Of a stretch of DNA of 52,579 bases, positions 1 to 11,724 are shown piece after piece (within the stretch, counting starts at the first letter, position 1; each line of letters opens with the position of its first letter). Under the pieces are notes generated by a model. It saw nothing but the letters and a program-made list of their open reading frames with translations, was not told where the DNA came from and searched no databases. Origin of the DNA: a virus (lineage: Duplodnaviria; Heunggongvirae; Uroviricota; Caudoviricetes); IMG/VR virus record IMGVR_UViG_2684622554_000006; one strand, 5' to 3'. Made by a program: the position numbers and the translations under genes.

Positions 1-1008
1 CTAATCGATGGACAGTTTATGGACACTTTCAGCCAGCGGATTAAAGTTGATCGCGTCCAGTAAAAAGTCCGGCGAAAAATGAGCGTACGTCATTGTTTGC
101 TGAATCGTTGCGTGCCCCAGGATTCGTTGCAACGTAACAATATTTCCGCCATTCATCATAAAGTGTGTGGCAAATGTATGACGCATGACATGCGTAGCCT
201 GCCCCTTCGGCAAATCCGGTTTCACCTCCTGAAGAATCTCCCGGAACTTCAGATAATCAACCTGATACAATAACCCCGTTCGACGGGTTTTAATCAGAGG
301 CACGACCGAATCCGCCACAGGAACCGAACGGGATTTTCCGTTTTTGGTGTTAAAGAACGTCACCCGGTTGCCAACGATATGCTCTCCACGTAGTTCCGAT
401 GCTTCACTCCATCGGGCACCAGTAGAAAGACACAGAATGGCAACACGACGCGCATCACCCTCCAGTCGCTCAAGAAGCCGTTCAATCTCATCATCAGAAA
501 GAAAGGCCATCTCTGTGTTCTGAACTTTCAGTTTTCGTATACCGCGTACAGGGTTCGCGTTGTGAAAGACCTCAGCTTCAATCAGCACCGTGAACATGGT
601 AGACAGTACGCATAAGTCACGATTAATACTGGACGGCATTAATCCGGCCTGTAATTTCTCTGACCGATATTCAAGCATAAATTTTCGCGTCATCTGACTG
701 GCGCGAGGATCTCCCATTTCACGAACAACCTTCCCTAGCCTAACCCTGTAGCTATCCCCGTAAGCCTGATTACGCCCATCAAGCATCCACCACGCATCAA
801 GCAGCTCTGATAATCGCCGCTGATCAGCTGGCTTAGCCTGCCATGGCTTGTCATGAAAGTTCTGTAACACATACTTCTCAAACTCCTGAGCCTTTGATTT
901 CAGGGCAAAGATTTTTCGAATCCGCTTTCCTTCCGCCCCCTGCGGTCTGACATCGACCTGATAACGTCCGTCTTTGAGTTGCTTAATCGACATGATTAGC
1001 CCCTCCAA
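1..1008 (-). CDS. int: P2-family tyrosine integrase (site-specific recombinase)
   Basis: 335-aa ORF with stop at window position 1-3; C-terminal catalytic region with H..R..H..Y arrangement (HTFATHF...LGHATIQQTMTYAHF); sits next to a divergent repressor/cox pair as in P2/186 prophages. The first ATG may be a few codons inside the ORF. Confidence 0.9.
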   Translation of the reverse strand: MEGLIMSIKQLKDGRYQVDVRPQGAEGKRIRKIFALKSKAQEFEKYVLQNFHDKPWQAKPADQRRLSELLDAWWMLDGRNQAYGDSYRVRLGKVVREMGDPRASQMTRKFMLEYRSEKLQAGLMPSSINRDLCVLSTMFTVLIEAEVFHNANPVRGIRKLKVQNTEMAFLSDDEIERLLERLEGDARRVAILCLSTGARWSEASELRGEHIVGNRVTFFNTKNGKSRSVPVADSVVPLIKTRRTGLLYQVDYLKFREILQEVKPDLPKGQATHVMRHTFATHFMMNGGNIVTLQRILGHATIQQTMTYAHFSPDFLLDAINFNPLAESVHKLSID

Positions 1009-1062
1009 CGGATAAATTAACTAAACACTCCTTGCGATATGTAATTCGCTCAATGTGTAGAG

Positions 1063-1404
1063 TCAGCCAACATTGCGGCCTGATCGGGGTGATTTTTGGG
1101 TAATACCGATTGAAACCTGATCGCCCTCCGACTGAATAGATCCATCAAGAGAGAGAGCCGGAGCAATCTGCCCGGCGACAGGTAGCGTCTTATCTTTTAT
1201 TAGCCACAGCATGTATTTTTCAAAGCGATCGACTTGCAGAACCGCCTCAACGATTTTTGCTCTAGCGTTCTTTTGCCCCGATTCGTAATTCCTTATGGTT
1301 GCCAAAGACAACCCAGTAATATCCGCAAACTGCTTTTGTGTTAACCCTTCCGCCTTACGTATCTGACGTAACTTTTTTGCGTAGTCTATTGACAAGATAA
1401 CCAT
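1063..1404 (-). CDS. C/CI-type immunity repressor, HTH_XRE family
   Basis: HTH segment LRQIRKAEGLTQKQFADITGLSLATIRNYESGQ; ATG at 1402-1404 gives 113 aa; the track ORF extends to a TTG at 1458. Divergent from the cox-like gene. Confidence 0.7.
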   Translation of the reverse strand: MVILSIDYAKKLRQIRKAEGLTQKQFADITGLSLATIRNYESGQKNARAKIVEAVLQVDRFEKYMLWLIKDKTLPVAGQIAPALSLDGSIQSEGDQVSIGITQKSPRSGRNVG

Positions 1405-1508
1405 TTGAGTATTAACCTCTCGCACAAAGATAACCTTTTGGTTATCTTTACAAGCCAAAACAAACCATCACAAGGCGCGACAAGCGCACCAACGCAAGAG
1501 GATAACAA
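1405..1508. promoter_or_regulatory. Divergent promoter/operator region of the lysis-lysogeny switch (Pc/Pe equivalent)
   Basis: 104-bp gap between the divergently oriented repressor and cox-like genes; strong RBS (AAGAGGA) ahead of the 1509 ATG. Promoter hexamers were not mapped. Confidence 0.5.
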
Positions 1509-2030
1509 ATGCGGGACTTCATTGCCGATAAAGAGTTATCTGACCACCAACCACTTCAGGAAAGTGACGCACTCAGCGGATCCATTGATGCCGCCAACGA
1601 CGACGAGCACGAAGAAAACAAGAAAAAGCGTTCCTACAAAAAAGGAGCGACTTTGCGGCTGGATGGTCCGATCGCCGGGCTTTGCTCTCTGGAAAAAGGC
1701 GCGGCATATATTGGGCTAACAAAATCTGCACTGCGCGTAGCCATTCATCGCGGTCAAATGCCGGGACACAAGACGCGCACAAACCCGGAAGATGAAAACT
1801 CAGACGGAGTATGGTGGTTTAACGCCAAAGAGTGGGACAAGTTGGCTGATGAGCTACCAGAGCACGAGCCCCCAGAATGGCACAACTGGAAAAGTTACTG
1901 GACGTATGACCGCCAGAAAAGGAAGTTCTCTCCAGCTAATAAAGAAGACTGCCAGACCATTAACGGTAAGCGAGTTTATACAGGCAGAAGCTCAAAACTG
2001 GACCAACTCAGAAACAACAGAGGCAACTAA
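1509..2030 (+). CDS. Putative Cox/Apl-like excision and switch regulator (HTH), unusually long at 173 aa
   Basis: First rightward gene opposite the repressor; acidic N-terminus followed by an HTH-like segment (AAYIGLTKSALRVAIHRGQMPG). Assignment is by position and HTH only. Confidence 0.4.
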   Translation: MRDFIADKELSDHQPLQESDALSGSIDAANDDEHEENKKKRSYKKGATLRLDGPIAGLCSLEKGAAYIGLTKSALRVAIHRGQMPGHKTRTNPEDENSDGVWWFNAKEWDKLADELPEHEPPEWHNWKSYWTYDRQKRKFSPANKEDCQTINGKRVYTGRSSKLDQLRNNRGN

Positions 2031-2034
2031 TCGT

Positions 2035-2457
2035 ATGAAAACAAACACGTCAGATTTCACAATAACTATTTCAAAAAATGACCAAGCATTAATTGATAAC
2101 CTGAAATACCTTGCGGAAAAACATAATAACGGACGAATTGCAATTAATTTACGACACATCACAGGAGTAACAATTGTAACCAGTTACTGGCATCTATATC
2201 TAATCGCTAAATCAGTACTTGAAAACAAAGATTCTGTTGTCAATGGAAGAGATATAGATACTCTTCCTGCACAAATCAAACCGATAGCCTATCAATTGCG
2301 TAATCGTTTTAAAAATGAAGGTGGGATTATATTTGACTTTCCCGCAGCTGTAGCCGTGAGCTTCTCTCGGGGGGATATACTTCACTCATTTCGTTTTGCT
2401 CTATCAGGTGACGAGACATTATGGCAGCTAGAAGATGCCGGGAGCAGCCCGGCATAA
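2035..2457 (+). CDS. Hypothetical protein (140 aa), AT-rich moron
   Basis: ATG at 2035 in frame with track ORF 1792-2457, starting 5 nt after the cox-like stop with a GAGG RBS; local composition visibly more AT-rich than neighbours; no recognisable motifs. Confidence 0.45.
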   Translation: MKTNTSDFTITISKNDQALIDNLKYLAEKHNNGRIAINLRHITGVTIVTSYWHLYLIAKSVLENKDSVVNGRDIDTLPAQIKPIAYQLRNRFKNEGGIIFDFPAAVAVSFSRGDILHSFRFALSGDETLWQLEDAGSSPA

Positions 2458-2463
2458 ATCAAA

Positions 2464-2655
2464 TTAAAAATCAACCAGTTGTGTGACAGGTGGGTATTTA
2501 CGCTGAATTTTGTCAGTTACTAACGCCAGTAATATATGAATCTCTGTGTTTAATGCGTCTTTATCACCCGTCGTTTTTACCCTGGGAGGGTTAATGTTAT
2601 CCAGAGCAGCACTAAGTTCACTCAACAAATTAACAACTTTTTTATCTTCTGACAT
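2464..2655 (-). CDS. Small hypothetical protein (63 aa), convergent with the 2035-2457 gene
   Basis: ORF with a good AAGAGG RBS 7 nt upstream of its ATG; AT-rich; no recognisable motifs. Confidence 0.35.
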   Translation of the reverse strand: MSEDKKVVNLLSELSAALDNINPPRVKTTGDKDALNTEIHILLALVTDKIQRKYPPVTQLVDF

Positions 2656-2792
2656 GAAAACCTCTTAACAATTTAATTAAACATAAGCCAGGACCTGAAC
2701 CGGCCAGTCCAAGTCCTAGACACACAAAAAAAATACCACAAATCAATACAAGGTGACACGAGTACACCTTACCGAAGGTACAGAGTTTTAAT

Positions 2793-3143
2793 ATGAAACT
2801 ACAGCGCAATTCTTCACAGCAGCGCTTCCGCAACGGTGCGGAACGCCATGCTAACCGTTTCGCTACCAGTGCATCACGTAGCAACTCTCGCTACAGCCTG
2901 AGCGAAACACACGCAACGCCGGATGGCTACCCAGTAAAACAAATTGGTGAACACACTTGGCTGATTGAAAAAGCAGGAATCGTGGTTCACAGATGCCAGC
3001 GCAACCCATTTACCGGAAACCGCATTTTTGCACTGAGCAACGGCGACAATCAGTTCGGGCAGGATTTCACATTATACGAAGCACTTCGCACGGTTGATCG
3101 TCTGCTTCACGGGCAAAGTTTTATTAAACAGGCTGATTTATAA
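2793..3143 (+). CDS. Hypothetical early-operon protein (116 aa)
   Basis: ORF co-directional with the early operon; no motif recognised. Confidence 0.5.
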   Translation: MKLQRNSSQQRFRNGAERHANRFATSASRSNSRYSLSETHATPDGYPVKQIGEHTWLIEKAGIVVHRCQRNPFTGNRIFALSNGDNQFGQDFTLYEALRTVDRLLHGQSFIKQADL

Positions 3144-3153
3144 CAGGTGCTTT

Positions 3154-3432
3154 ATGACCAAAGAGCATGCACAAGGTGTATTTATCCGTTTTATTGATTT
3201 TCGCGGTGAACTGTTATTACGCGCATCAGCCATTGACGGAGTTGTTCCATCCGAAAAAAATGCAGCTACTTACGTTTATCTGAACGGCACGCGCCTGACC
3301 GTAGAACTTCCGTACCAGACTGTACACGAAATCATTAGCGAAGCGGAAAAAGCACGTAAGACTAATGGCGATGAACCCTATATCGAAATTATTTGTATGG
3401 ATTCAGAAGCAGAAATTCAGAAAGCAGATTAA
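3154..3432 (+). CDS. Hypothetical early-operon protein (92 aa)
   Basis: ATG at 3154 within track ORF 3094-3432; tightly packed with neighbours. Confidence 0.5.
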   Translation: MTKEHAQGVFIRFIDFRGELLLRASAIDGVVPSEKNAATYVYLNGTRLTVELPYQTVHEIISEAEKARKTNGDEPYIEIICMDSEAEIQKAD

Positions 3433-3443
3433 AGGGCGTTGCG

Positions 3444-3686
3444 ATGGGCAAAGAATATAAAACTCTCATTAACAAAGCACTTGAGCGTTTTTATTTTCGC
3501 TTAAGTGCATCAGGCGCTCATGCTGAACGTGCAGCCCGTGACTCATTGACCAGGGCAATCCGGAGTCTGTATGACGTGGCTTTTTACGCTGATGATCTGG
3601 ATGCACTTAACGAACTTTCCGAGCTGATCTGTGCCGCAGAATGCGGGGAACATATTGAACCGTATAAGCTGGGGAATATCGCATGA
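3444..3686 (+). CDS. Hypothetical early-operon protein (80 aa)
   Basis: ATG at 3444 within track ORF 3393-3686. Confidence 0.5.
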   Translation: MGKEYKTLINKALERFYFRLSASGAHAERAARDSLTRAIRSLYDVAFYADDLDALNELSELICAAECGEHIEPYKLGNIA

Positions 3687-3796
3687 GTATATTTATGTCA
3701 TGGATTGTTCTGATTATTTCAGTGGTCTGCGCAATTGGCATTGTGCGAATTATTCATTCAGTAAAAAAGATTGAACGTTTTTTCACTGGTGAATAA
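3683..3796 (+). CDS. Small hydrophobic peptide (37 aa, MSIFMSWIVLIISVVCAIGIVRIIHSVKKIERFFTGE), candidate membrane micro-protein
   Basis: ATG overlaps the upstream stop (ATGA at 3683-3686), suggesting translational coupling; a single predicted TM helix. Below the ORF-track length cutoff; found by reading the sequence. Confidence 0.3.
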   Translation: MSIFMSWIVLIISVVCAIGIVRIIHSVKKIERFFTGE

Positions 3797-3889
3797 CGAT
3801 ACAAATAAAACATCAAATTAAATAAGAAAACGTGAAAACCATCCGTATTAACGGAGGTATTCGCACACGCAAATAACGGAGATACAAAA

Positions 3890-4300
3890 ATGCACGCAAA
3901 AGAAGAAGGTATCATCAGAGCACTGAAAGAAATTTCAAAGACAGAAAACGAAGTAGCGAAAAAAGCCATAGCAAATAATCATATGGACGTCGCAACCCAC
4001 ACACTGATAGTCGCAAGAGTCACGGCAGAAGCAGCCGAAATTATCGCAAAACAGGATGCTGAACTGGCGGTTCTCAGAACACAACCAGTCACCGGACTGG
4101 ATTTGTCTAACACCGGACGCCTTATTTACACAATTGGCTCGGAGCTACAGCGATACACCATTATCGCCGGGTTACAGGATAAATACCTGATCACTCCTCA
4201 CCCCATAAGGGAATCAGAAATTCTGACAAATCTCCGCCTGATAGAGCGCTCTCAAGTCGCATTCATTGATGACGCACAGTGCACCGTATTTAACGCATAG
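3890..4300 (+). CDS. Hypothetical protein (136 aa)
   Basis: ORF preceded by a 93-bp AT-rich spacer (possible internal promoter). Confidence 0.5.
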   Translation: MHAKEEGIIRALKEISKTENEVAKKAIANNHMDVATHTLIVARVTAEAAEIIAKQDAELAVLRTQPVTGLDLSNTGRLIYTIGSELQRYTIIAGLQDKYLITPHPIRESEILTNLRLIERSQVAFIDDAQCTVFNA

Positions 4301-5086: not shown

Positions 5087-5408
5087 GAAACCAGAGCATG
5101 CACACACAAAAAAACCGCTTGCCATGCCGCAATCAGTCAGGTTACATTTCCGCTGCACCTCATAAAACGGGTGCCGGGTTTCGCAGCCTGCTGACTACAC
5201 AAGCGCACAACCGCGCCAGCGGTTTTTTTGTGCGTACTGTATTGCCACGTTTTTTTCGCGTCAGAATTATGGCGGGGCGTACGGGGCCGACTTCGGTCGG
5301 GCCGGGTTCTTGTGTAGCCGGTACTGCGAACCTCGTACGTCTCGCCACCCACAGTTTCGCAGCTCTGGATGGTGAGTTTTCACAACTTACTACACAAGGG
5401 GCCACACC

Positions 5409-5639
5409 ATGGCAAACCGCAAACAGCACCGCGCTATCGCGGAGCGTCGTCACATCCAGACTGAAATCAACCGCAGACTTTCCCGCGCATCACGCGTCGC
5501 GCAAATCATGCACATCAATATGCTGCATGAGCGCAGCCACGCACTATCAAACATTTATTCCGCCTCTGTTTTCAGCTATCTGGCGGATGATCTGCACGAG
5601 CTTCAACAGCTCATCCAGCAGCAAAACAAACTCCATTAA
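5409..5639 (+). CDS. Hypothetical protein (76 aa)
   Basis: ORF following a 320-bp structured non-coding stretch; start uncertain. Confidence 0.35.
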   Translation: MANRKQHRAIAERRHIQTEINRRLSRASRVAQIMHINMLHERSHALSNIYSASVFSYLADDLHELQQLIQQQNKLH

Positions 5640-5711: not shown

Positions 5712-6077
5712 ATGATTCTCGCCAACGACTTTCTTGAATACCTGCTCAATACAGAACGTGATCTTGCCGCTCGCGTGCGTGATCGTTATGACATGTACCT
5801 GAAATCCCTGCCTGTACCGCAGCTCGCTGACGGAAAGATTGTTATTGATGGTCGCTACATGATTGACAGCCACGAGGGAAATTACAGGCTTTACCGCATT
5901 GAAGGTGGCACCCCGTCCGTTATTGGCATTTACCAGCGCCCATCCTCTGCAATCGTCGATGTGATTGCCGACAGCATCCGCATCACACATCGCCATGCCG
6001 ACACAGAAGACACCGTGCTGGAAATTCAGCGGCTGGCTACAGTCTGCCGCGACACCCTGAATGGCATGACGAAGTAA
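5712..6077 (+). CDS. Hypothetical protein (121 aa) immediately upstream of replication gene A
   Basis: ORF ending 6 nt before the A start. Confidence 0.5.
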   Translation: MILANDFLEYLLNTERDLAARVRDRYDMYLKSLPVPQLADGKIVIDGRYMIDSHEGNYRLYRIEGGTPSVIGIYQRPSSAIVDVIADSIRITHRHADTEDTVLEIQRLATVCRDTLNGMTK

Positions 6078-6083
6078 ATCACT

Positions 6084-8906
6084 ATGACGGCAGAGTACCT
6101 CAGGGACTGGCAACAACCGCGCCACGCAGTGGGGCGTGAAGGAACGGGGATCCCCGCTCCTGAATCCGCGCTTTCCTCCTGGCTGGATGCCTACCGGGCA
6201 GAGAACGAGCGCCGCCAGGAAATGGCTGATGCGGCGTTCTCAGCCACGCCGCTGGGCAACCTGATTAATAAAAGCCTGGACGCACAGGAAAAACAGGACA
6301 AAACCATCACACTGGCAGGAGACGCCAGAAAACAGGCACGTGGCGCGGTGGATGAAGCCATGGCCTCGCTGCGCCTGCTGCCGTCCTATCTGCGCGATCC
6401 GCTTATTCGCCACCTCTCCTTCCTGCGCAAAAAACAGGAAGCCGATCGCCGGAAAGGCAAAAAGAGCTGGCAGGCGGAACGCTATGCACGCGGAACCCTG
6501 CGCAAAATATTCGAACGTCTGGATAGCACTGACGGACGCTGGCTGACACCGGGTTATCGCTCCCTTGCCGGACGCGAACGCCTGGACGATTTGCTTTACC
6601 TGCCGCAGCTCAACAAACACCAGATACAGACGCTGGCCACCATGACGGCGGCGATGTTCAGCAGCACCTTCGAAAAACTCTGCGATGGCTTTGGCGCGAC
6701 CGATGGCGAGCTGACCATGGATGTAACCCTGAAGGCGTATCAGATGCTGGCCCGCATGGCGTTACACCTGCACGCCATGCCTCCACATTATGACGCACTG
6801 ACAACAGACAAAGACCGGAGGAACGAACCGGACACGGAGCTGCTGCCGGGCGCAATCCTTCGCCTGACCTGTGCGGAATGGTGGAAACGCAAACTGTGGC
6901 TGTTACGTTGCGAGTGGAGAGAAGAACAACTCCGCGCCGCCTGTCTGGTTTCCAGAAAAACATCACCCTATCTGAGCCAGGACGCGTTAAGCGAGTTTCG
7001 CGCACAGCGCGAGAAAACACGCGATTTCCTGAAAAGTTTCATGCTGGAAAATGAAGACGGGTTCACGATTGATCTCGAGACAGTGTATTACGCGGGAGTA
7101 AGTAACCCGGTTCACCGTAAGGCAGAAATGATGGCCACCATGAAGGGACTGGAACTTCTGGCCGAAGCCCGTGGCGACAAAGCGGTGTTTCTGACTGTCA
7201 CCTGCCCGTCAAAATACCACGCCACAACGGAGAACGGTCATCCGAATCCCAAATGGAACGGGGCCACAATGCGCGACTCCAGCGATTACCTGGTTAACAC
7301 GTTTTTTGCGGCGGTCCGCAAAAAACTGAACCGCGACGGCCTGCGCTGGTATGGCATCCGCACGGTGGAGCCTCATCATGACGGCACCGTGCACTGGCAT
7401 ATGATGGTCTTTGCACATCCGGAAGAAATCGACACCATTGTGTCCCATACCCGCGATATTGCCATTCAGGAAGACCGCCACGAGCTGGGCAATGATATTA
7501 CTCCGCGCTTTAAGGTGGAGTATGTCGACGGCTCAAAAGGCACGCCAACCAGCTACATCGCCACCTACATCGGAAAGAACCTGGACAGCCGCGCCGTGGA
7601 TGGCATCGACCCGAAAACGGGCAAGCCACGCGTGGACCACGAAACCGGAAAATCAATGGCCGAGAGCGTGGAGCGCGCCATCGGCTGGGCGCGCCTTCAC
7701 CGGGTCCGTCAGTTCCAGTTCTTTGGCATCCCCTCCCGTCAGGTGTGGCGTGAACTGCGCCGCCTTGCCAGCCAGATGGCACGCAATCCGGAAGGCCCGC
7801 AACGGCTGAAAGATGATGCAATGGATGCGGTACTCGCTGCCGCCGATGCCGGGTGTTTTGCCACCTACATTGAAAAACAGGGTGGCGTGCTTGTTCCACG
7901 CAAGGACTACCTGATTCGCACCGCCTACGACCTCGCAGATGAGCTGAACGATTACGGCGAACAGAGCGTACAGATTTACGGGATCTGGTCACCACTCATC
8001 GGGGAATCCTCCCGTGTGTGCACGCATCCGGATAACTGGAAGCTGGTAAGACGTAAACCGGAAGCGGAAGACAGCGCCCGCGAAAATGGTTTTGACCTTC
8101 AGGGCGGCCCTGCCGCCCCTTGGACTCGTGGCAATAACTGTCCCCGTGTACAGGAAACGGACAACAACGGGACAGAACAGCCGGAAGAACGGCCAGCACC
8201 GTGGCCGCAGCTCCCTGACGGCGTTGAAGTGAACGAATGGATGCGCTCACTGAAACGACACGAACGCCGGGCGCTGATGCGTTCGCTTCGTGACAAACAG
8301 GCAAAAAACAGCAGCGATGAAATGCAGAGCTGGACACAGAGCCGCAAACAGCAGCGGCCTTTGCCTGATAACCACGAATTACTCGCTAAAGAATGGCGGG
8401 AGTCTGCTGAATCTCTCGGCCTGCATATCGGTGAACAACAGATGCAGCACCTGTTACGGGGCGGCAGTCTGTACGTTGACGGCAGCATCATTGCACCGCA
8501 GGGATTTGAAATTGTACGCAAACCGGATACCCGCCCGGACAGCCGAATCACGCAGCTCTGGCAGCGCCTGAGCCGTAATCATGGCGTAAGCAGCACGGAG
8601 ATCCGCCATAACCCGGTCGCCAGCTATCTGGCACAGCTGGGGGCATCAGACCCTGAAGCCGCCGCACGCCTGGCATCCACACTTCAGCAGGGCCAGAACA
8701 CCATGAAAACACCCGTTACCGTGCTTTCTGACATGCTGCGCGCCATCCGCGACGCAGAGCACGCACAGAGAATCAGTGAAACCACTGAACGCGCCAGCCG
8801 CAAAGCAGACCTGCTGCGGGGTGGCCTGACCAGTGGAAACAAAAAACAGACAGAAACGGGACTTACGAATCCCGTAAATGAGCAAAAAACGCGCAGCGAT
8901 ATATGA
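6084..8906 (+). CDS. A: Replication initiation protein A (HUH rolling-circle endonuclease)
   Basis: 940-aa ORF with HUH motif (TVHWHMMVFAHPEE) and tyrosine/lysine active-site segment (YIATYIGKNL) typical of P2 gpA-family initiators; RBS and ATG at 6084. Confidence 0.9.
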   Translation: MTAEYLRDWQQPRHAVGREGTGIPAPESALSSWLDAYRAENERRQEMADAAFSATPLGNLINKSLDAQEKQDKTITLAGDARKQARGAVDEAMASLRLLPSYLRDPLIRHLSFLRKKQEADRRKGKKSWQAERYARGTLRKIFERLDSTDGRWLTPGYRSLAGRERLDDLLYLPQLNKHQIQTLATMTAAMFSSTFEKLCDGFGATDGELTMDVTLKAYQMLARMALHLHAMPPHYDALTTDKDRRNEPDTELLPGAILRLTCAEWWKRKLWLLRCEWREEQLRAACLVSRKTSPYLSQDALSEFRAQREKTRDFLKSFMLENEDGFTIDLETVYYAGVSNPVHRKAEMMATMKGLELLAEARGDKAVFLTVTCPSKYHATTENGHPNPKWNGATMRDSSDYLVNTFFAAVRKKLNRDGLRWYGIRTVEPHHDGTVHWHMMVFAHPEEIDTIVSHTRDIAIQEDRHELGNDITPRFKVEYVDGSKGTPTSYIATYIGKNLDSRAVDGIDPKTGKPRVDHETGKSMAESVERAIGWARLHRVRQFQFFGIPSRQVWRELRRLASQMARNPEGPQRLKDDAMDAVLAAADAGCFATYIEKQGGVLVPRKDYLIRTAYDLADELNDYGEQSVQIYGIWSPLIGESSRVCTHPDNWKLVRRKPEAEDSARENGFDLQGGPAAPWTRGNNCPRVQETDNNGTEQPEERPAPWPQLPDGVEVNEWMRSLKRHERRALMRSLRDKQAKNSSDEMQSWTQSRKQQRPLPDNHELLAKEWRESAESLGLHIGEQQMQHLLRGGSLYVDGSIIAPQGFEIVRKPDTRPDSRITQLWQRLSRNHGVSSTEIRHNPVASYLAQLGASDPEAAARLASTLQQGQNTMKTPVTVLSDMLRAIRDAEHAQRISETTERASRKADLLRGGLTSGNKKQTETGLTNPVNEQKTRSDI

Positions 8907-8982: not shown

Positions 8983-9942
8983 ATGAAAATTTGTATCGAC
9001 GACGGCTCCACCAACATCAAGCTGGCATGGACTGAGAATGGCGAACGCCGCAACGCCATCAGCCCGAACAGCTTCAAGTCGGAATGGTCTGCGCCGTTCG
9101 GTGGCATGCAGCCCGCGAACTACATGCTTGATGGCGTGCGCTATGGTTTTGATCCGGTTAGCGATCGCTTTGTCCAGACGACCGACACGCAATACCAGTA
9201 CAGCGATGTGAATGTAATCGCCATTCATCACGCGCTGGTCAAATCAGGCATCACGCCACAGGAGGTGGATGTGGTTGTCACCCTGCCACTGAGCGAGTAT
9301 TTCGACACAAACGCACAGCCGGACATGGCCAACATCAACCGCAAAAAAGCGAACGTTATGCGCCCGGTGGAATACCAGAACGGCGAAGCATTCACTATCC
9401 GTAACGTGCGGGTTATGCCTGAATCCATTCCGGCTGGCTTTAAAGCACTGGCTGACATGAGTCCGTTTGAATCCCTGCTGATTGTGGATTTAGGCGGAAC
9501 CACGCTGGATGTGGCAAAGGTTCAAGGGCAACTGGCAGGTATCAGCCAGGTGTTTTGCGATCCACACGTAGGCGTTTCCCTGATGGCCGATGCCGTACTG
9601 TCGGTGATGGCCACTAACGGTATGCGCACCAGTCACCACATCGCCAATACCATTATCGAACATCGCCATGATGAAGCCTGGCTGCGCCAGCACATCCACA
9701 ATGACGCGCATTACGCCAGCCTGATGGCGGTTATTCGTGAAAAGGAAGAAACACTGAAACAACGCGTGATCCGCGCGCTGGCGGTTTTTTCGGGTTACGG
9801 GCGGGTGATGGTTGTCGGTGGAGGGGCGGAGATTGTGGCACCCGCTATCCGCGAAGTCTGCGGAGTTAATGCGACTTTCATCGCGGACGGGGTGCCACAG
9901 TTTGCTCTGGTTAATGGGCTGTACGCAATGGACAAGGAGTAA
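8983..9942 (+). CDS. parM: ParM/StbA-like actin-type plasmid-segregation ATPase
   Basis: N-terminus MKICIDDGSTNIKLAW, phosphate-2 motif LLIVDLGGTTLDVAKV and C-terminal VMVVGGGAE match ParM of plasmid R1 closely; RBS AAGGAAAA. Confidence 0.85.
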   Translation: MKICIDDGSTNIKLAWTENGERRNAISPNSFKSEWSAPFGGMQPANYMLDGVRYGFDPVSDRFVQTTDTQYQYSDVNVIAIHHALVKSGITPQEVDVVVTLPLSEYFDTNAQPDMANINRKKANVMRPVEYQNGEAFTIRNVRVMPESIPAGFKALADMSPFESLLIVDLGGTTLDVAKVQGQLAGISQVFCDPHVGVSLMADAVLSVMATNGMRTSHHIANTIIEHRHDEAWLRQHIHNDAHYASLMAVIREKEETLKQRVIRALAVFSGYGRVMVVGGGAEIVAPAIREVCGVNATFIADGVPQFALVNGLYAMDKE

Positions 9943-9946
9943 ACCA

Positions 9947-10261
9947 ATGACGACACCAACCAGACGGATAAGTTTCTATCTGAAGCCCGCCGCCGTCAAG
10001 AGTGAACAGGAGGCGTGCAATTACCTCGATAGCCTGCCAGCCTCCGAACGCAGCCGCGCGCAACGCGCGGCCTTTCTGGCTGGGCTAGCGCTCATAAAGC
10101 GCAACCCAGCATTTGCCTACTGGATGGCCGAATGGCCAGAGGACAACCTCCCCTTCAATACCGTTAGCATCAAGGAAACATACCAGGATAATCAGCCTAG
10201 CGGAGTTGAATGCAATTTTTATAAAATAAAAAAGAATATTCAGACCTTATTCCCAGAATAA
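9947..10261 (+). CDS. parR: ParR-like centromere-binding adaptor (104 aa)
   Basis: ATG at 9947 with AAGGAG RBS; RRISFYLKP...LDSLPASERSRAQRAAFLAGLAL resembles the R1 ParR N-terminal region; directly downstream of parM. Confidence 0.7.
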   Translation: MTTPTRRISFYLKPAAVKSEQEACNYLDSLPASERSRAQRAAFLAGLALIKRNPAFAYWMAEWPEDNLPFNTVSIKETYQDNQPSGVECNFYKIKKNIQTLFPE

Positions 10262-10344: not shown

Positions 10345-11187
10345 TCATGATGAAATTGCCGAAGTTTTTTTATCGTGCTGAAGTACCGCAAATGCCATTA
10401 AAACCTCAAGAGAATAGCGGCGATAATACTTAACAAAACCATAATAAAATACTCGGGATGCAGCAATACAAAACAAGAGAAGAAAACAAAAAGGTAACAG
10501 TCTGATATTTATATCTATTAAAAAGGATAGAAGGAGCAGGAACATAAGCAACCAGACTGAAGCGAGAAAAACAAATGTAATGTTTCTACAAAAACCATAC
10601 AAAGCAACATAGTTTTGCATTTTCACCTGATGATTTTTAGAATGTTCATACACATAATGATAAGCAAGGCGAAAAAGATCGCCCCTCAAGCCCTTACGTC
10701 GATATAGCGTAGATACAGAAAAAACATTTATATAACCATCTCGTATTTGCGGCCAAAAGACTTTAATAAGTATAGAATGCAGTGTGGTTTTATGATGTTC
10801 TGCTTTATCAAAAGCTGATACAGGAAATAAAAAAACTCCACGAATAAAATTAACTATACTGAACTTAGTATTATGTCGTTTTATTTTCAGGGAGCTTCTT
10901 TTAGAAAACAGATAAATTGAAGGATACCCAAGTTTACTGTTCATGTATTTTTCAATTAAACAGGATGATAGAATAGATATGAAGTGACCTGAAATATATG
11001 ATAGAACGATTAATACCACATATATAAATACACTTATTATTTCTTTATATTTCAGGATATGGTTAAGAATACCTTCTATATAAACAGGGTTAATTTCAAT
11101 AGAAAACAAAAAAAGGATAAACAGGAATAACCCACCTGGAATTAGATAGCCCAAAAAGTCATAAAATGAAAACGGATTCTGTGTCAC
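10345..11187 (-). CDS. Hypothetical polytopic membrane protein (280 aa): two N-terminal and two C-terminal TM segments around a ~130-aa basic, aromatic-rich loop
   Basis: Intact ORF in a strongly AT-rich island; hydrophobic segments LGYLIPGGLFLFILFLFSI, IISVFIYVVLIVLSYISGHFISILSS, VFLASVWLLMFLLLLSFLI and LLPFCFLLLFCIAASRVFYYGFV; no family recognised. Confidence 0.6.
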   Translation of the reverse strand: MTQNPFSFYDFLGYLIPGGLFLFILFLFSIEINPVYIEGILNHILKYKEIISVFIYVVLIVLSYISGHFISILSSCLIEKYMNSKLGYPSIYLFSKRSSLKIKRHNTKFSIVNFIRGVFLFPVSAFDKAEHHKTTLHSILIKVFWPQIRDGYINVFSVSTLYRRKGLRGDLFRLAYHYVYEHSKNHQVKMQNYVALYGFCRNITFVFLASVWLLMFLLLLSFLIDINIRLLPFCFLLLFCIAASRVFYYGFVKYYRRYSLEVLMAFAVLQHDKKTSAISS

Positions 11188-11226: not shown

Positions 11227-11724
11227 TTATTTGTTTTTCCGTAAAGGATTAGCTTTCCATCTTCTTACTAACCATTCGAATTCTTGATATGTAGTATCCG
11301 AATTAATGCTTTCTCTGATTGCTTTAATTAATGGCTCGGCAATATCATATGTCTCTACAACTGTTGTGTAAGATGTTCTTTTTATCATTTTTTCATCATA
11401 AATACCTTCACGAATACTTACAGCAACTCGCTCGTAAAAATTTAAAATATATTGAAATTTTCGACGCTCGGCCATTTCTTCATCTGTTATTATGCAACCA
11501 TCACAAGGAAAAACATAAGAACGAAATGATTTGCCTGAACGATGCACTTGTTTCAGGGTATGCAATGACTCTATATATTGCATATCTTGCCGACTCTCAA
11601 AAAGAAAGTTGGCCGTTTGAGTTTTTTTTGCGGTACGCACATTGTAGATAATGGTTCCAATGGCAACCAAAACGCCAAGCAGAACAATAGCATTGCTGAT
11701 GATTTGTAGTGTTATTGGGTTCAT
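11227..11724 (-). CDS. Hypothetical protein (165 aa) with one N-terminal TM helix and a soluble C-terminal domain; first gene of the AT-rich cassette
   Basis: Intact ORF with ATG at 11722-11724, 39 bp upstream of the 280-aa membrane protein and co-directional with it; no family recognised. Confidence 0.6.
   Translation of the reverse strand: MNPITLQIISNAIVLLGVLVAIGTIIYNVRTAKKTQTANFLFESRQDMQYIESLHTLKQVHRSGKSFRSYVFPCDGCIITDEEMAERRKFQYILNFYERVAVSIREGIYDEKMIKRTSYTTVVETYDIAEPLIKAIRESINSDTTYQEFEWLVRRWKANPLRKNK

Follow-up and report, generated by a model that had tools for sequence, protein, structure and literature searches.

Two convergent orphan genes form a mobile accessory cassette in the early operon of a P88-like Escherichia coli prophage and may encode an antagonistic pair

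What are two small genes, one reading with the early operon of a P2-like prophage and the other against it, doing immediately behind cox? The question arises at the left end of the IMG/VR virus record IMGVR_UViG_2684622554_000006, a stretch of 52,579 nt that we refer to as the window, where an open reading frame (ORF) for a 140 aa protein (ORF140) and an opposing one for a 63 aa protein (ORF63) lie tail-to-tail between the cox gene and a conserved early gene of the DUF4761 family (Table 1). We show here that the two genes constitute a single mobile accessory cassette at this position in the early operon of a P88-like prophage of the P2 family, and that they are inherited, diverge and are lost together, in an arrangement that is always tail-to-tail with the stop codons abutting or overlapping. 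On sequence and profile comparison their products represent two undescribed protein families. As to what they do, the architecture of the locus and the analogy with other phages point tentatively to a cognate antagonistic pair, with expression tied to lysogeny or lysis by convergent transcription; we give this reading a probability of roughly 0.4.

Relatives of the two genes are few. A word-indexed search of 5.8 billion proteins returned near-identical E. coli copies only and no diverged relatives, and an exhaustive HMMER search of 1.84 billion representatives identified one true distant relative of ORF140, a 138 aa protein of Salmonella enterica (E=2.7e-7, 33% identity; pairwise E=7e-17). A second match, to a 1,073 aa protein (P0015, E=6.7e-5), was dismissed as an artefact of a repeat motif. 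The Salmonella gene comes after int, C and cox in a different P2-like prophage and is faced by a convergent ORF, the two stops overlapping by 4 nt; the 62 aa product of this ORF is 40% identical to ORF63 (E=7e-16). Together with this locus (L004), its close relative L006, and two further loci, L018 and L030, recovered with the large and the small protein respectively, the pair is present in five diverged loci, including the window. The ORF140 homologues of the other four are 22–35% identical to it, and the diverged versions of both genes span 22–40%.

Both genes are present in all five loci, and seeding the searches with either protein gave only loci that hold both. In each of them the pair is just downstream of the cox region of a P2-like prophage, the large gene is in the early-operon direction, and the small gene converges on it. 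The stops overlap by 4 nt in four of the loci and are 6 bp apart in the window (2458–2463), where the coordinates confirm the original prediction, made from the letters of the window, of a 140 aa plus-strand and a 63 aa minus-strand ORF with ends separated by this distance. By Nei-Gojobori counts the proportion of nonsynonymous differences (pN) is below that of synonymous differences (pS) in every pairwise comparison for both genes; between lineages the synonymous sites have reached saturation, and where dN/dS is computable it is 0.18–0.58. Because the pairing geometry is conserved and pN<pS throughout, this comparison shows that ORF140 and ORF63 are genuine protein-coding genes, evolving together under purifying selection. 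No relative came up in two scans of GTDB species representatives, a metagenome scan gave E. coli-identical copies only, re-seeded viral scans yielded no additional members, and no complete E. coli genome has the diverged alleles. Asymmetric gene loss, considered as a test of antidote dependence, was uninformative since most of the truncated alleles stem from indel-ridden assemblies.

The extent of the cassette is evident from comparison with related prophages. The original prediction described a segment of ~650 bp that is more AT-rich than its surroundings, and the compositional difference is clear (GC content 0.378 in the module and 0.482 in the 3 kb flanks; 0.35–0.42 over ~1900–2800 and ~0.50 on each side), with an AT-rich trend in all five loci; the junctions with UMNK88 and with L037, however, define a cassette that is slightly larger (Table 1). 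With junctions marked by slashes, UMNK88 has ggcaacTAA/ACACACAAAAA and the window has ggcaacTAA/tcgtATG...gtcCTAG/ACACACAAAAA, in which the TAA (2028–2030) is the stop of cox, the opening gene of the rightward early operon, and adjoins the cassette. In L037, an E. coli prophage (NZ_CM136152.1, 2490–2540, equivalent to window 2027/2715) with the same attachment site as the window and 99.75% identity in int-C-cox, the sequence is ggcaac/CTAG/ACACACAAAAA. It is without window 2028–2714 exactly, a natural 687 bp deletion that removes both genes together with the cox stop, and its Cox is 12 residues longer at the C-terminal end because that stop is lost. We considered L037 as an ancestral empty site and rejected this, as the last four bases of the cassette (CTAG) are still present; it is a deletion derivative. 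The slot is empty in P88, in which the DUF4761 gene follows cox after 37 bp, and it holds other cargo elsewhere, such as the gene for a 68 aa protein with two transmembrane segments in UMNK88 and Citrobacter phage phiSM, and a 64 aa ORF in S19-651. To the right of the cassette the window has a relic of the 5′ end of the gene for the 68 aa protein, and similarity to the wider P88 group resumes at 2776–2786.

The divergence of the cassette does not follow that of the neighbouring immunity region. L030 has the same Cox type as the window, yet its cassette proteins are just 22% and 37% identical to those of the window, and L018 has a different repressor/Cro/Cox set. Cassette divergence thus does not go by immunity type, and a role within the immunity switch itself is unlikely.

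Neither of the window proteins, nor any diverged member of the two families, has a family match in Pfam, PHROGs, PADLOC or NCBIfam, and there is no Pfam, NCBIfam or PADLOC match to known toxin or antitoxin superfamilies for any member. None of the PADLOC-DB v2 defence-protein models matches ORF140 or ORF63 at E≤10, and a match to DUF1408 (E=0.022) was rejected as sub-threshold and confined to one member. Searches of the PDB with single sequences and profiles gave no match for either protein, and tblastn against 50,697 phage records returned only identical prophage copies and chance matches at E≥0.9. Both proteins are predicted to be soluble, ORF140 being near-neutral and ORF63 mildly acidic. 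The structure prediction proposed as a check on the original prediction was informative in part: an AlphaFold2 model of ORF63 is a two-helix hairpin (helices 3–21 and 31–53; pLDDT, the predicted local distance difference test score, 68) for which Foldseek found no fold match, and the single-sequence model of ORF140 was unusable (pLDDT 41.9) and was left out of the fold search. Members of the ORF63 family share the motifs M-x-E-D-x-K...L-L...A-L, towards the N terminus, and K-Y-P, towards the C terminus, and some of them also have the NINPPR motif of ORF63. Alignment of the N-terminal half of ORF140 with its C-terminal half (hhalign, P=5e-4) suggests that a strand-strand-helix unit may have been duplicated within the protein.

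P2 orf78 and 186 cII, fil and dhr are examples of small ORFs that follow cox or apl in the early operon. The cassette resembles these in being immediately after cox or apl in the early transcript, small and non-essential. The original prediction recognised no P2 early protein in either product, and named homology to P2 orf78-type proteins as the result that would speak against it; no sequence similarity to these or other P2 or 186 early proteins was found by tblastn against the same phage records, and PHROGs gave no significant family. To our knowledge none of orf78, cII, fil and dhr has a convergent protein-coding partner.

The predicted expression signals of the two genes differ. The only start signal of ORF140 is a GAGG 11 nt upstream, its ATG is 4 nt past the cox stop, and the homologue in L006 overlaps the stop of the gene upstream of it; from this arrangement ORF140 appears to be coupled to cox in both transcription and translation, not independent of it. 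Of the two ribosome-binding sites originally predicted, one for each gene, that of ORF63 is a strong Shine-Dalgarno sequence and that of ORF140 no more than the distant GAGG. The leader of ORF63 contains an extended −10-like motif, TGGTATTTT, which is its sole TGnTAnnnT and also its best-scoring promoter candidate. Six leaders, those of the five small genes and of an unrelated 103 aa leftward ORF of L004, each have exactly one TGnTAnnnT, which is 83 nt from the ATG in the window and 75–80 nt from it in the other five, and which is followed by a hairpin; the hairpin is strong in the window, L004 (z=−2.0) and L030 (z=−4.3) and weak in L006 and L018. L004 has a 117 nt direct repeat (6627–6743 and 7833–7949, 91% identical) with copies 25–30 nt upstream of two leftward ORFs, the 62 aa partner gene and the unrelated 103 aa ORF, and from its placement the repeat looks like a reusable leftward promoter/leader element. 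A TGTGnTAT motif was considered as a promoter carried in by the cassette and rejected, since it is outside the cassette in the window. We note that an ATG-to-ATA change in the relic at 2719–2775 creates the TGGTATTTT motif on the opposite strand. Rfam reports no RNA family within 1000–4000, and nothing in the phage collection matches the 163 nt Salmonella leader.

A terminator scan reported no terminator-like site on either strand between ORF140 and ORF63, and with no such site between the genes their transcripts must overlap if both are transcribed. No plus-strand promoter-like or terminator-like site is predicted within 2035–2792, so early transcripts must cross ORF63 in the antisense direction to reach the early and replication genes, and on the minus strand of the window no terminator is predicted from ORF63 to the C gene. 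The GC-rich inverted repeat within the last codons of ORF140 was rejected as a bidirectional terminator because the T-run precedes it on the minus strand and the A-run follows it on the plus strand; it was unreported by the terminator scan and is not seen at the junctions of the other loci. The antisense regulation suggested in the original prediction gains weight from the lack of a terminator-like site between the genes and from a tail-to-tail geometry that is conserved across deep divergence. The suggestion that the segment is a moron is borne out in that it is a compositionally distinct accessory cassette between genes that are adjacent in P88, but not in that ORF140 lacks independence and sits in the early operon. 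With respect to a promoter and terminator of its own, by which a moron is recognised, ORF63 has the −10-like motif and the leader hairpin and no downstream terminator, and ORF140 abuts cox and has no promoter of its own.

Table 1. Features at the left end of the window (positions are those of the whole stretch)
Feature	Position	Strand	Evidence or remark
Integrase gene	1–1008	−	
Helix-turn-helix immunity repressor gene, P2 C type	1063–1398	−	
Cox-like regulator/excisionase gene, 173 aa	1509–2030	+	Pfam Phage_Cox 1.9e-7; phrog_23196 1.3e-116
Accessory cassette, ~688 bp, AT-rich	~2031–2718		bounded by comparison with related prophages
ORF140, 140 aa	ATG at 2035 to TAA ending 2457	+	early-operon direction
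GC-rich inverted repeat GCCGGGAGCAGCCCGGC	2436–2452		within last ORF140 codons
ORF63, 63 aa	ATG at 2655 to stop at 2464	−	convergent on ORF140
Shine-Dalgarno sequence AAGAGG of ORF63, strong	2661–2666	−	5 nt from ORF63 ATG
Hairpin with 14 bp stem, ORF63 leader, right-hand cassette end	2688–2719	−	minimum free energy −21.9 kcal/mol, z=−1.7
Relic of 5′ end of gene for 68 aa protein with two transmembrane segments	2719–2775		UMNK88 ACACACAAAAATGACCAGCAAT; window ACACACAAAAAAAATACCACAAAT
Extended −10-like motif TGGTATTTT, candidate leftward ORF63 promoter	2730–2738	−	consensus match; 83 nt from ATG
DUF4761 gene, next conserved early-operon gene	2793–3143	+	Pfam DUF4761 2.2e-68

A reading that accommodates these features is that the cassette acts as a noncontiguous operon, a concept introduced by Saenz-Lahoya (2019; PMC6358700). 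The geometry of one is present, with cox and ORF140 facing ORF63 and the DUF4761 gene beyond it, cox and the DUF4761 gene being contiguous in P88; co-transcription is predicted only. Under this proposal ORF140 would be transcribed with cox, and probably translationally coupled to it, from the repressor-controlled early promoter, and its product would be made only in lytic growth. ORF63 would be transcribed leftwards from a weak constitutive extended −10 promoter, through the hairpin leader and with a strong ribosome-binding site, and its product would be made in the lysogen. The two transcription units, having no terminator between them, would overlap and collide, such that strong early transcription after induction would silence ORF63, and leftward transcription of ORF63 in the lysogen would dampen leaky expression of ORF140 and cox. 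The two proteins would interact directly as cognate antagonists. By analogy with other phages we prefer, with considerable doubt, the polarity in which ORF63 is an effector made in the lysogen against incoming or competing phages and ORF140 an early antidote that spares the prophage's own lytic cycle. Also doubtful is the more specific possibility of an undescribed form of prophage immunity with self-immunity, in which the 63 aa protein blocks a step common to P2-like (or other) phages and the 140 aa early protein, co-evolving with it, neutralises it on induction of the resident phage, with convergent, overlapping transcription as the switch. The reverse polarity, with ORF140 a harmful early effector and ORF63 a brake in the lysogenic phase, ranks lower and seems distinctly unlikely.

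Two experimentally supported systems provide the analogies. In phage phi80, taiEcA is a defence gene antisense in the Q-dependent late operon that is expressed constitutively in the lysogen and is down-regulated once Q activates the operon; its antidote is the product of atiEcA, the operon gene next to it, cognate Tai and Ati proteins interact, the effect is inhibition of tail assembly, and homologous pairs are ~40–47% identical (PMC11364771). The window pair is similar in that an opposite-strand gene is nested in a lytic-cycle operon beside an operon partner, in the combination of a small with a larger gene, and in rapid co-divergence. Expression of the opposite-strand gene in the lysogen, and of the operon gene only after induction, as in Tai/Ati, is what the proposal predicts for the window pair. 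The second system is Tha/Ith of the Staphylococcus aureus phage 80alpha, in which ith, a small antisense gene with a weak constitutive promoter, is nested in the cI operon that includes the HEPN gene tha, and in which collisions between RNA polymerases make expression mutually exclusive (PMC11087260). The window pair shares with it a small antisense gene nested in a life-cycle-specific operon, with a small protein that was earlier mis-annotated or ignored. Tha is a HEPN RNase, whereas no catalytic domain is recognisable in ORF140 or ORF63. The window pair is outside both the Tai/Ati and the Tha/Ith families, because it has no sequence relationship to them, is tail-to-tail and lies in an early lytic operon; by analogy it may nonetheless work like one or the other of them. 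Described hotspots of P2-like phages are gpA-portal, Z/fun and tail-CI, with old, tin and Z/fun as cargo or morons (PMC9122126; 10.1101/2024.10.15.618418). The cassette is like these morons in being AT-rich accessory DNA in a variable slot between conserved neighbours, with alternative cargo in relatives. It is unlike them in that the slot between cox and the DUF4761 gene is outside the three described hotspots and within the early operon, that one of the genes relies on the operon promoter rather than being self-contained, and that no known defence model matches.

Several observations weigh against an antagonistic pair of this type. The tai and ati genes are head-to-head with a 5′ overlap in a late operon, and the window genes are tail-to-tail in an early one; Tai is ~204 aa and Ati 76 aa, so that the antisense gene is the large one, and in the window it is the small one. 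Profile comparison (hhalign of profiles A3 and A4, probability ≤0.9%) found no homology to phi80 TaiEcA (orf63) or AtiEcA (orf64), and tblastn with ORF140 and ORF63 gave no phi80 match at E≤10. The main operon of 80alpha is that of lysogeny (cI), with the inhibitor encoded by the antisense gene, whereas the main operon in the window is lytic. The product of ORF63, a soluble two-helix protein of 63 aa, is small for a defence effector. The TGnTAnnnT motif is weak evidence when taken alone, as 11–42% of shuffled leaders contain it somewhere, and in the window the promoter-like motif belongs to the relic immediately beyond the cassette. Read on the ORF63 strand, the leader hairpin resembles a terminator and could block expression instead of aiding it. 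One 18.6 kb contig has an ORF63 shortened by 10 residues beside an intact ORF140, and strict co-dependence is therefore not evident. The family is also tiny, with about four lineages, and co-occurrence in five loci consequently lends only modest statistical support.

Some of the alternatives can be addressed with published data for the same prophage. Gene layout and family matches place the left end of a P2-family prophage at the start of the window, and after the DUF4761 gene come phrog_3800, DUF4754 and further conserved early genes. The first 4.3 kb are 100% identical to vB_EcoM-569R5, vB_EcoM-705R2 and PV468777, which are induced or predicted phages of E. coli sequence type 131 (ST131), and from ~2776–2786 on there is 86–94% identity to P88 and other Xuanwuvirus members (Peduoviridae). 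Identical DNA is present in the ST131 strain EC958 (NZ_HG941718.1), in which the prophage is Phi2, integrated beside dmsA, and the pair is EC958_RS04815 and EC958_RS04810, with ORF140 at 985988–986410. The 762 bp segment is in 272 of 5,426 complete E. coli genomes, with a single chromosomal copy in each and identity of at least 99% in 255. In the transposon-directed insertion-site sequencing (TraDIS) study of EC958, gene EC958_1050 has 19 independent insertion sites in 174 nt (insertion index 0.11) and was called non-essential, with no serum phenotype (PMC3789825, Tables S1 and S4). This gene is ORF63, to which it was matched by strand, length (the coding sequences in the table are all trimmed by 18 nt) and spacing from the DUF4761 gene and int; the assignment is independently confirmed by the EC958 genome paper, which puts position 985718, between the DUF4761 gene and ORF63, as "intergenic EC958_1049 and EC958_1050". 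The draft annotation used for TraDIS left out ORF140, cox and C. The lysogen can thus do without ORF63, which speaks against a classical or essential antitoxin role, and because the early promoter is repressed in the lysogen the result is neutral between the two polarities.

Four other explanations were considered, each of which fits less of the evidence than an antagonistic pair does. A classical toxin-antitoxin or addiction module, with a continuously made growth-arresting toxin and a labile antitoxin needed for survival of the lysogen, might be expected to appear as a small, horizontally mobile, AT-rich two-gene cassette such as this, and the small, acidic, helical ORF63 is antitoxin-like in general character. 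It is nevertheless the least probable of the readings: ORF63 tolerates the 19 transposon insertions in EC958, the genes are convergent in all five loci rather than forming a co-directional autoregulated (bicistronic) operon, no toxin, antitoxin or defence model matches, and L037 has cleanly lost the whole cassette in nature. An essential antitoxin role of ORF63 is contradicted by the TraDIS data. This verdict covers ORF63 as the antitoxin, the polarity with ORF140 as antitoxin being outside the TraDIS table, in which ORF140 is unannotated. No evidence in our analysis assigns an anti-defence, exclusion or toxin function to the pair. Nor does it seem probable that two unrelated orphan genes have hitch-hiked to this place with no joint function, or that the segment is decaying selfish DNA. 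The lack of any detectable function or family, the very narrow taxonomic range, the sporadic truncated alleles and a dispensability seen both in the natural deletion and in the TraDIS result for ORF63 are all compatible with such an origin, but four or five diverged lineages show the same pairing and geometry, in different prophage backgrounds, both genes are under purifying selection, and most of the "truncated" alleles are from error-ridden assemblies.

A role at the level of RNA or transcription is similarly improbable. In this explanation the leftward promoter would provide antisense RNA and interference against the early operon, and possibly extra transcription of C and int, with the ORFs secondary, and would stabilise lysogeny or help to establish it, like 186 pE or lambda pRE/oop. 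Interference between convergent promoters is reportedly well established in the 186 switch, the leader with its promoter-like motif is conserved, and with no minus-strand terminator from ORF63 to C a leftward transcript could cross ORF140 and cox into C-int. However, a purely RNA role would require no conservation of either protein, and the two protein sequences have been conserved while their synonymous sites became saturated; in addition, the cassette adjoins unrelated immunity modules, and P88 and others manage without it. Less improbable, and still unlikely, is that the products are partners rather than antagonists, acting as a complex or sequentially in a joint accessory function (host takeover, early counter-defence or lysogenic conversion), with convergence no more than a convenience. 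The strict co-occurrence and similar divergence of the two proteins, their shared soluble and mildly acidic character, and loss of the cassette as a unit are as expected for partners, and the early operon is where counter-defence genes are expected as a general principle (10.1101/2024.10.15.618418). Cooperating genes, though, are normally co-directional and co-transcribed, and here opposite strands with overlapping stops have been kept through more than 60% sequence divergence, which suggests that opposed expression is itself selected; the characterised cases with such nesting are antagonistic pairs.

The diverged loci have several other features of their own. A 36 nt direct repeat brackets the cassette in the Salmonella-type loci (L004 5986–6021 and 6751–6786, with equivalent sites in L006) and takes in the ribosome-binding site and the codons for the first seven residues (MKITTED / MKLTIED) of two rightward genes in succession, an arrangement that hints at cassette exchange by recombination at gene starts. 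Genes for small hydrophobic peptides of ~37 aa recur in the early regions (window 3683–3796, plus strand; L004 ~5876–5989, plus strand, read by eye), and in L004, L018 and L030 the 3′ end of such a gene is directly upstream of the large cassette gene. An ORF of 131–134 aa is immediately upstream of the large cassette gene, in the early region, in L030 (5685–6080, minus strand) and L006 (229–633, plus strand). Its product matches the P2 capsid scaffold/protease GpO in the N-terminal part alone (phrog_73, 1.9e-5; Pfam Phage_GPO below threshold), and judging from this partial similarity it could be a decoy or interference protein.

Other parts of the window prophage and its relatives also warrant comment. 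A gene for a Tum/CP76-type derepression protein (5409–5639, plus strand) and an ash-family pseudogene (~5098–5360), both as annotated in the identical phage record, imply a 186-like, SOS-inducible prophage. In the gpA-portal hotspot a 280 aa orphan ORF (10345–11187, minus strand) with a weak PADLOC Csx27-like match (1e-5) corresponds to EC958_1039, which was called essential in the EC958 TraDIS study (6 insertions in 824 nt, insertion index 0.007); its neighbours are a DUF4760 gene and a parM/parR-like pair (11227–11724, minus strand, and 8983–10261, plus strand). That an accessory gene of a prophage should be "essential" suggests a role like that of an antitoxin or an immunity gene. The record PV468777.1 (L050) is a mis-delimited prophage prediction, having the host genes dmsABC, pflAB, focA, serC and aroA inside and part of the phage missing. 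The cassette is also present at 99.9–100% identity in two PLSDB plasmid records, NZ_MK439959.1 (63834–64521) and CP054248.1 (512973–513659), of 228 kb and 542 kb, which may be mis-assigned chromosomal pieces or represent a prophage on a large replicon.

If the pair proves to have no phenotype, it would be hardly more than a clear-cut case of a conserved orphan cassette. If the antagonistic mechanism holds, two new families would be added to the few prophage effector/antidote pairs that are organised as noncontiguous operons, and the design would reach beyond lambdoid and staphylococcal phages into the P2 family, and beyond late and lysogenic operons into an early lytic one. The cox-proximal slot would then be a fourth accessory/defence hotspot of P2-like phages and worth searching for more cargo, neighbouring loci already holding several other orphan genes, and the pandemic ST131 lineage would carry the system. 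The cassette is fixed in Phi2 of ST131, and any effect that it has on phage susceptibility or prophage induction would matter for phage therapy and for the ecology of a major clinical clone.

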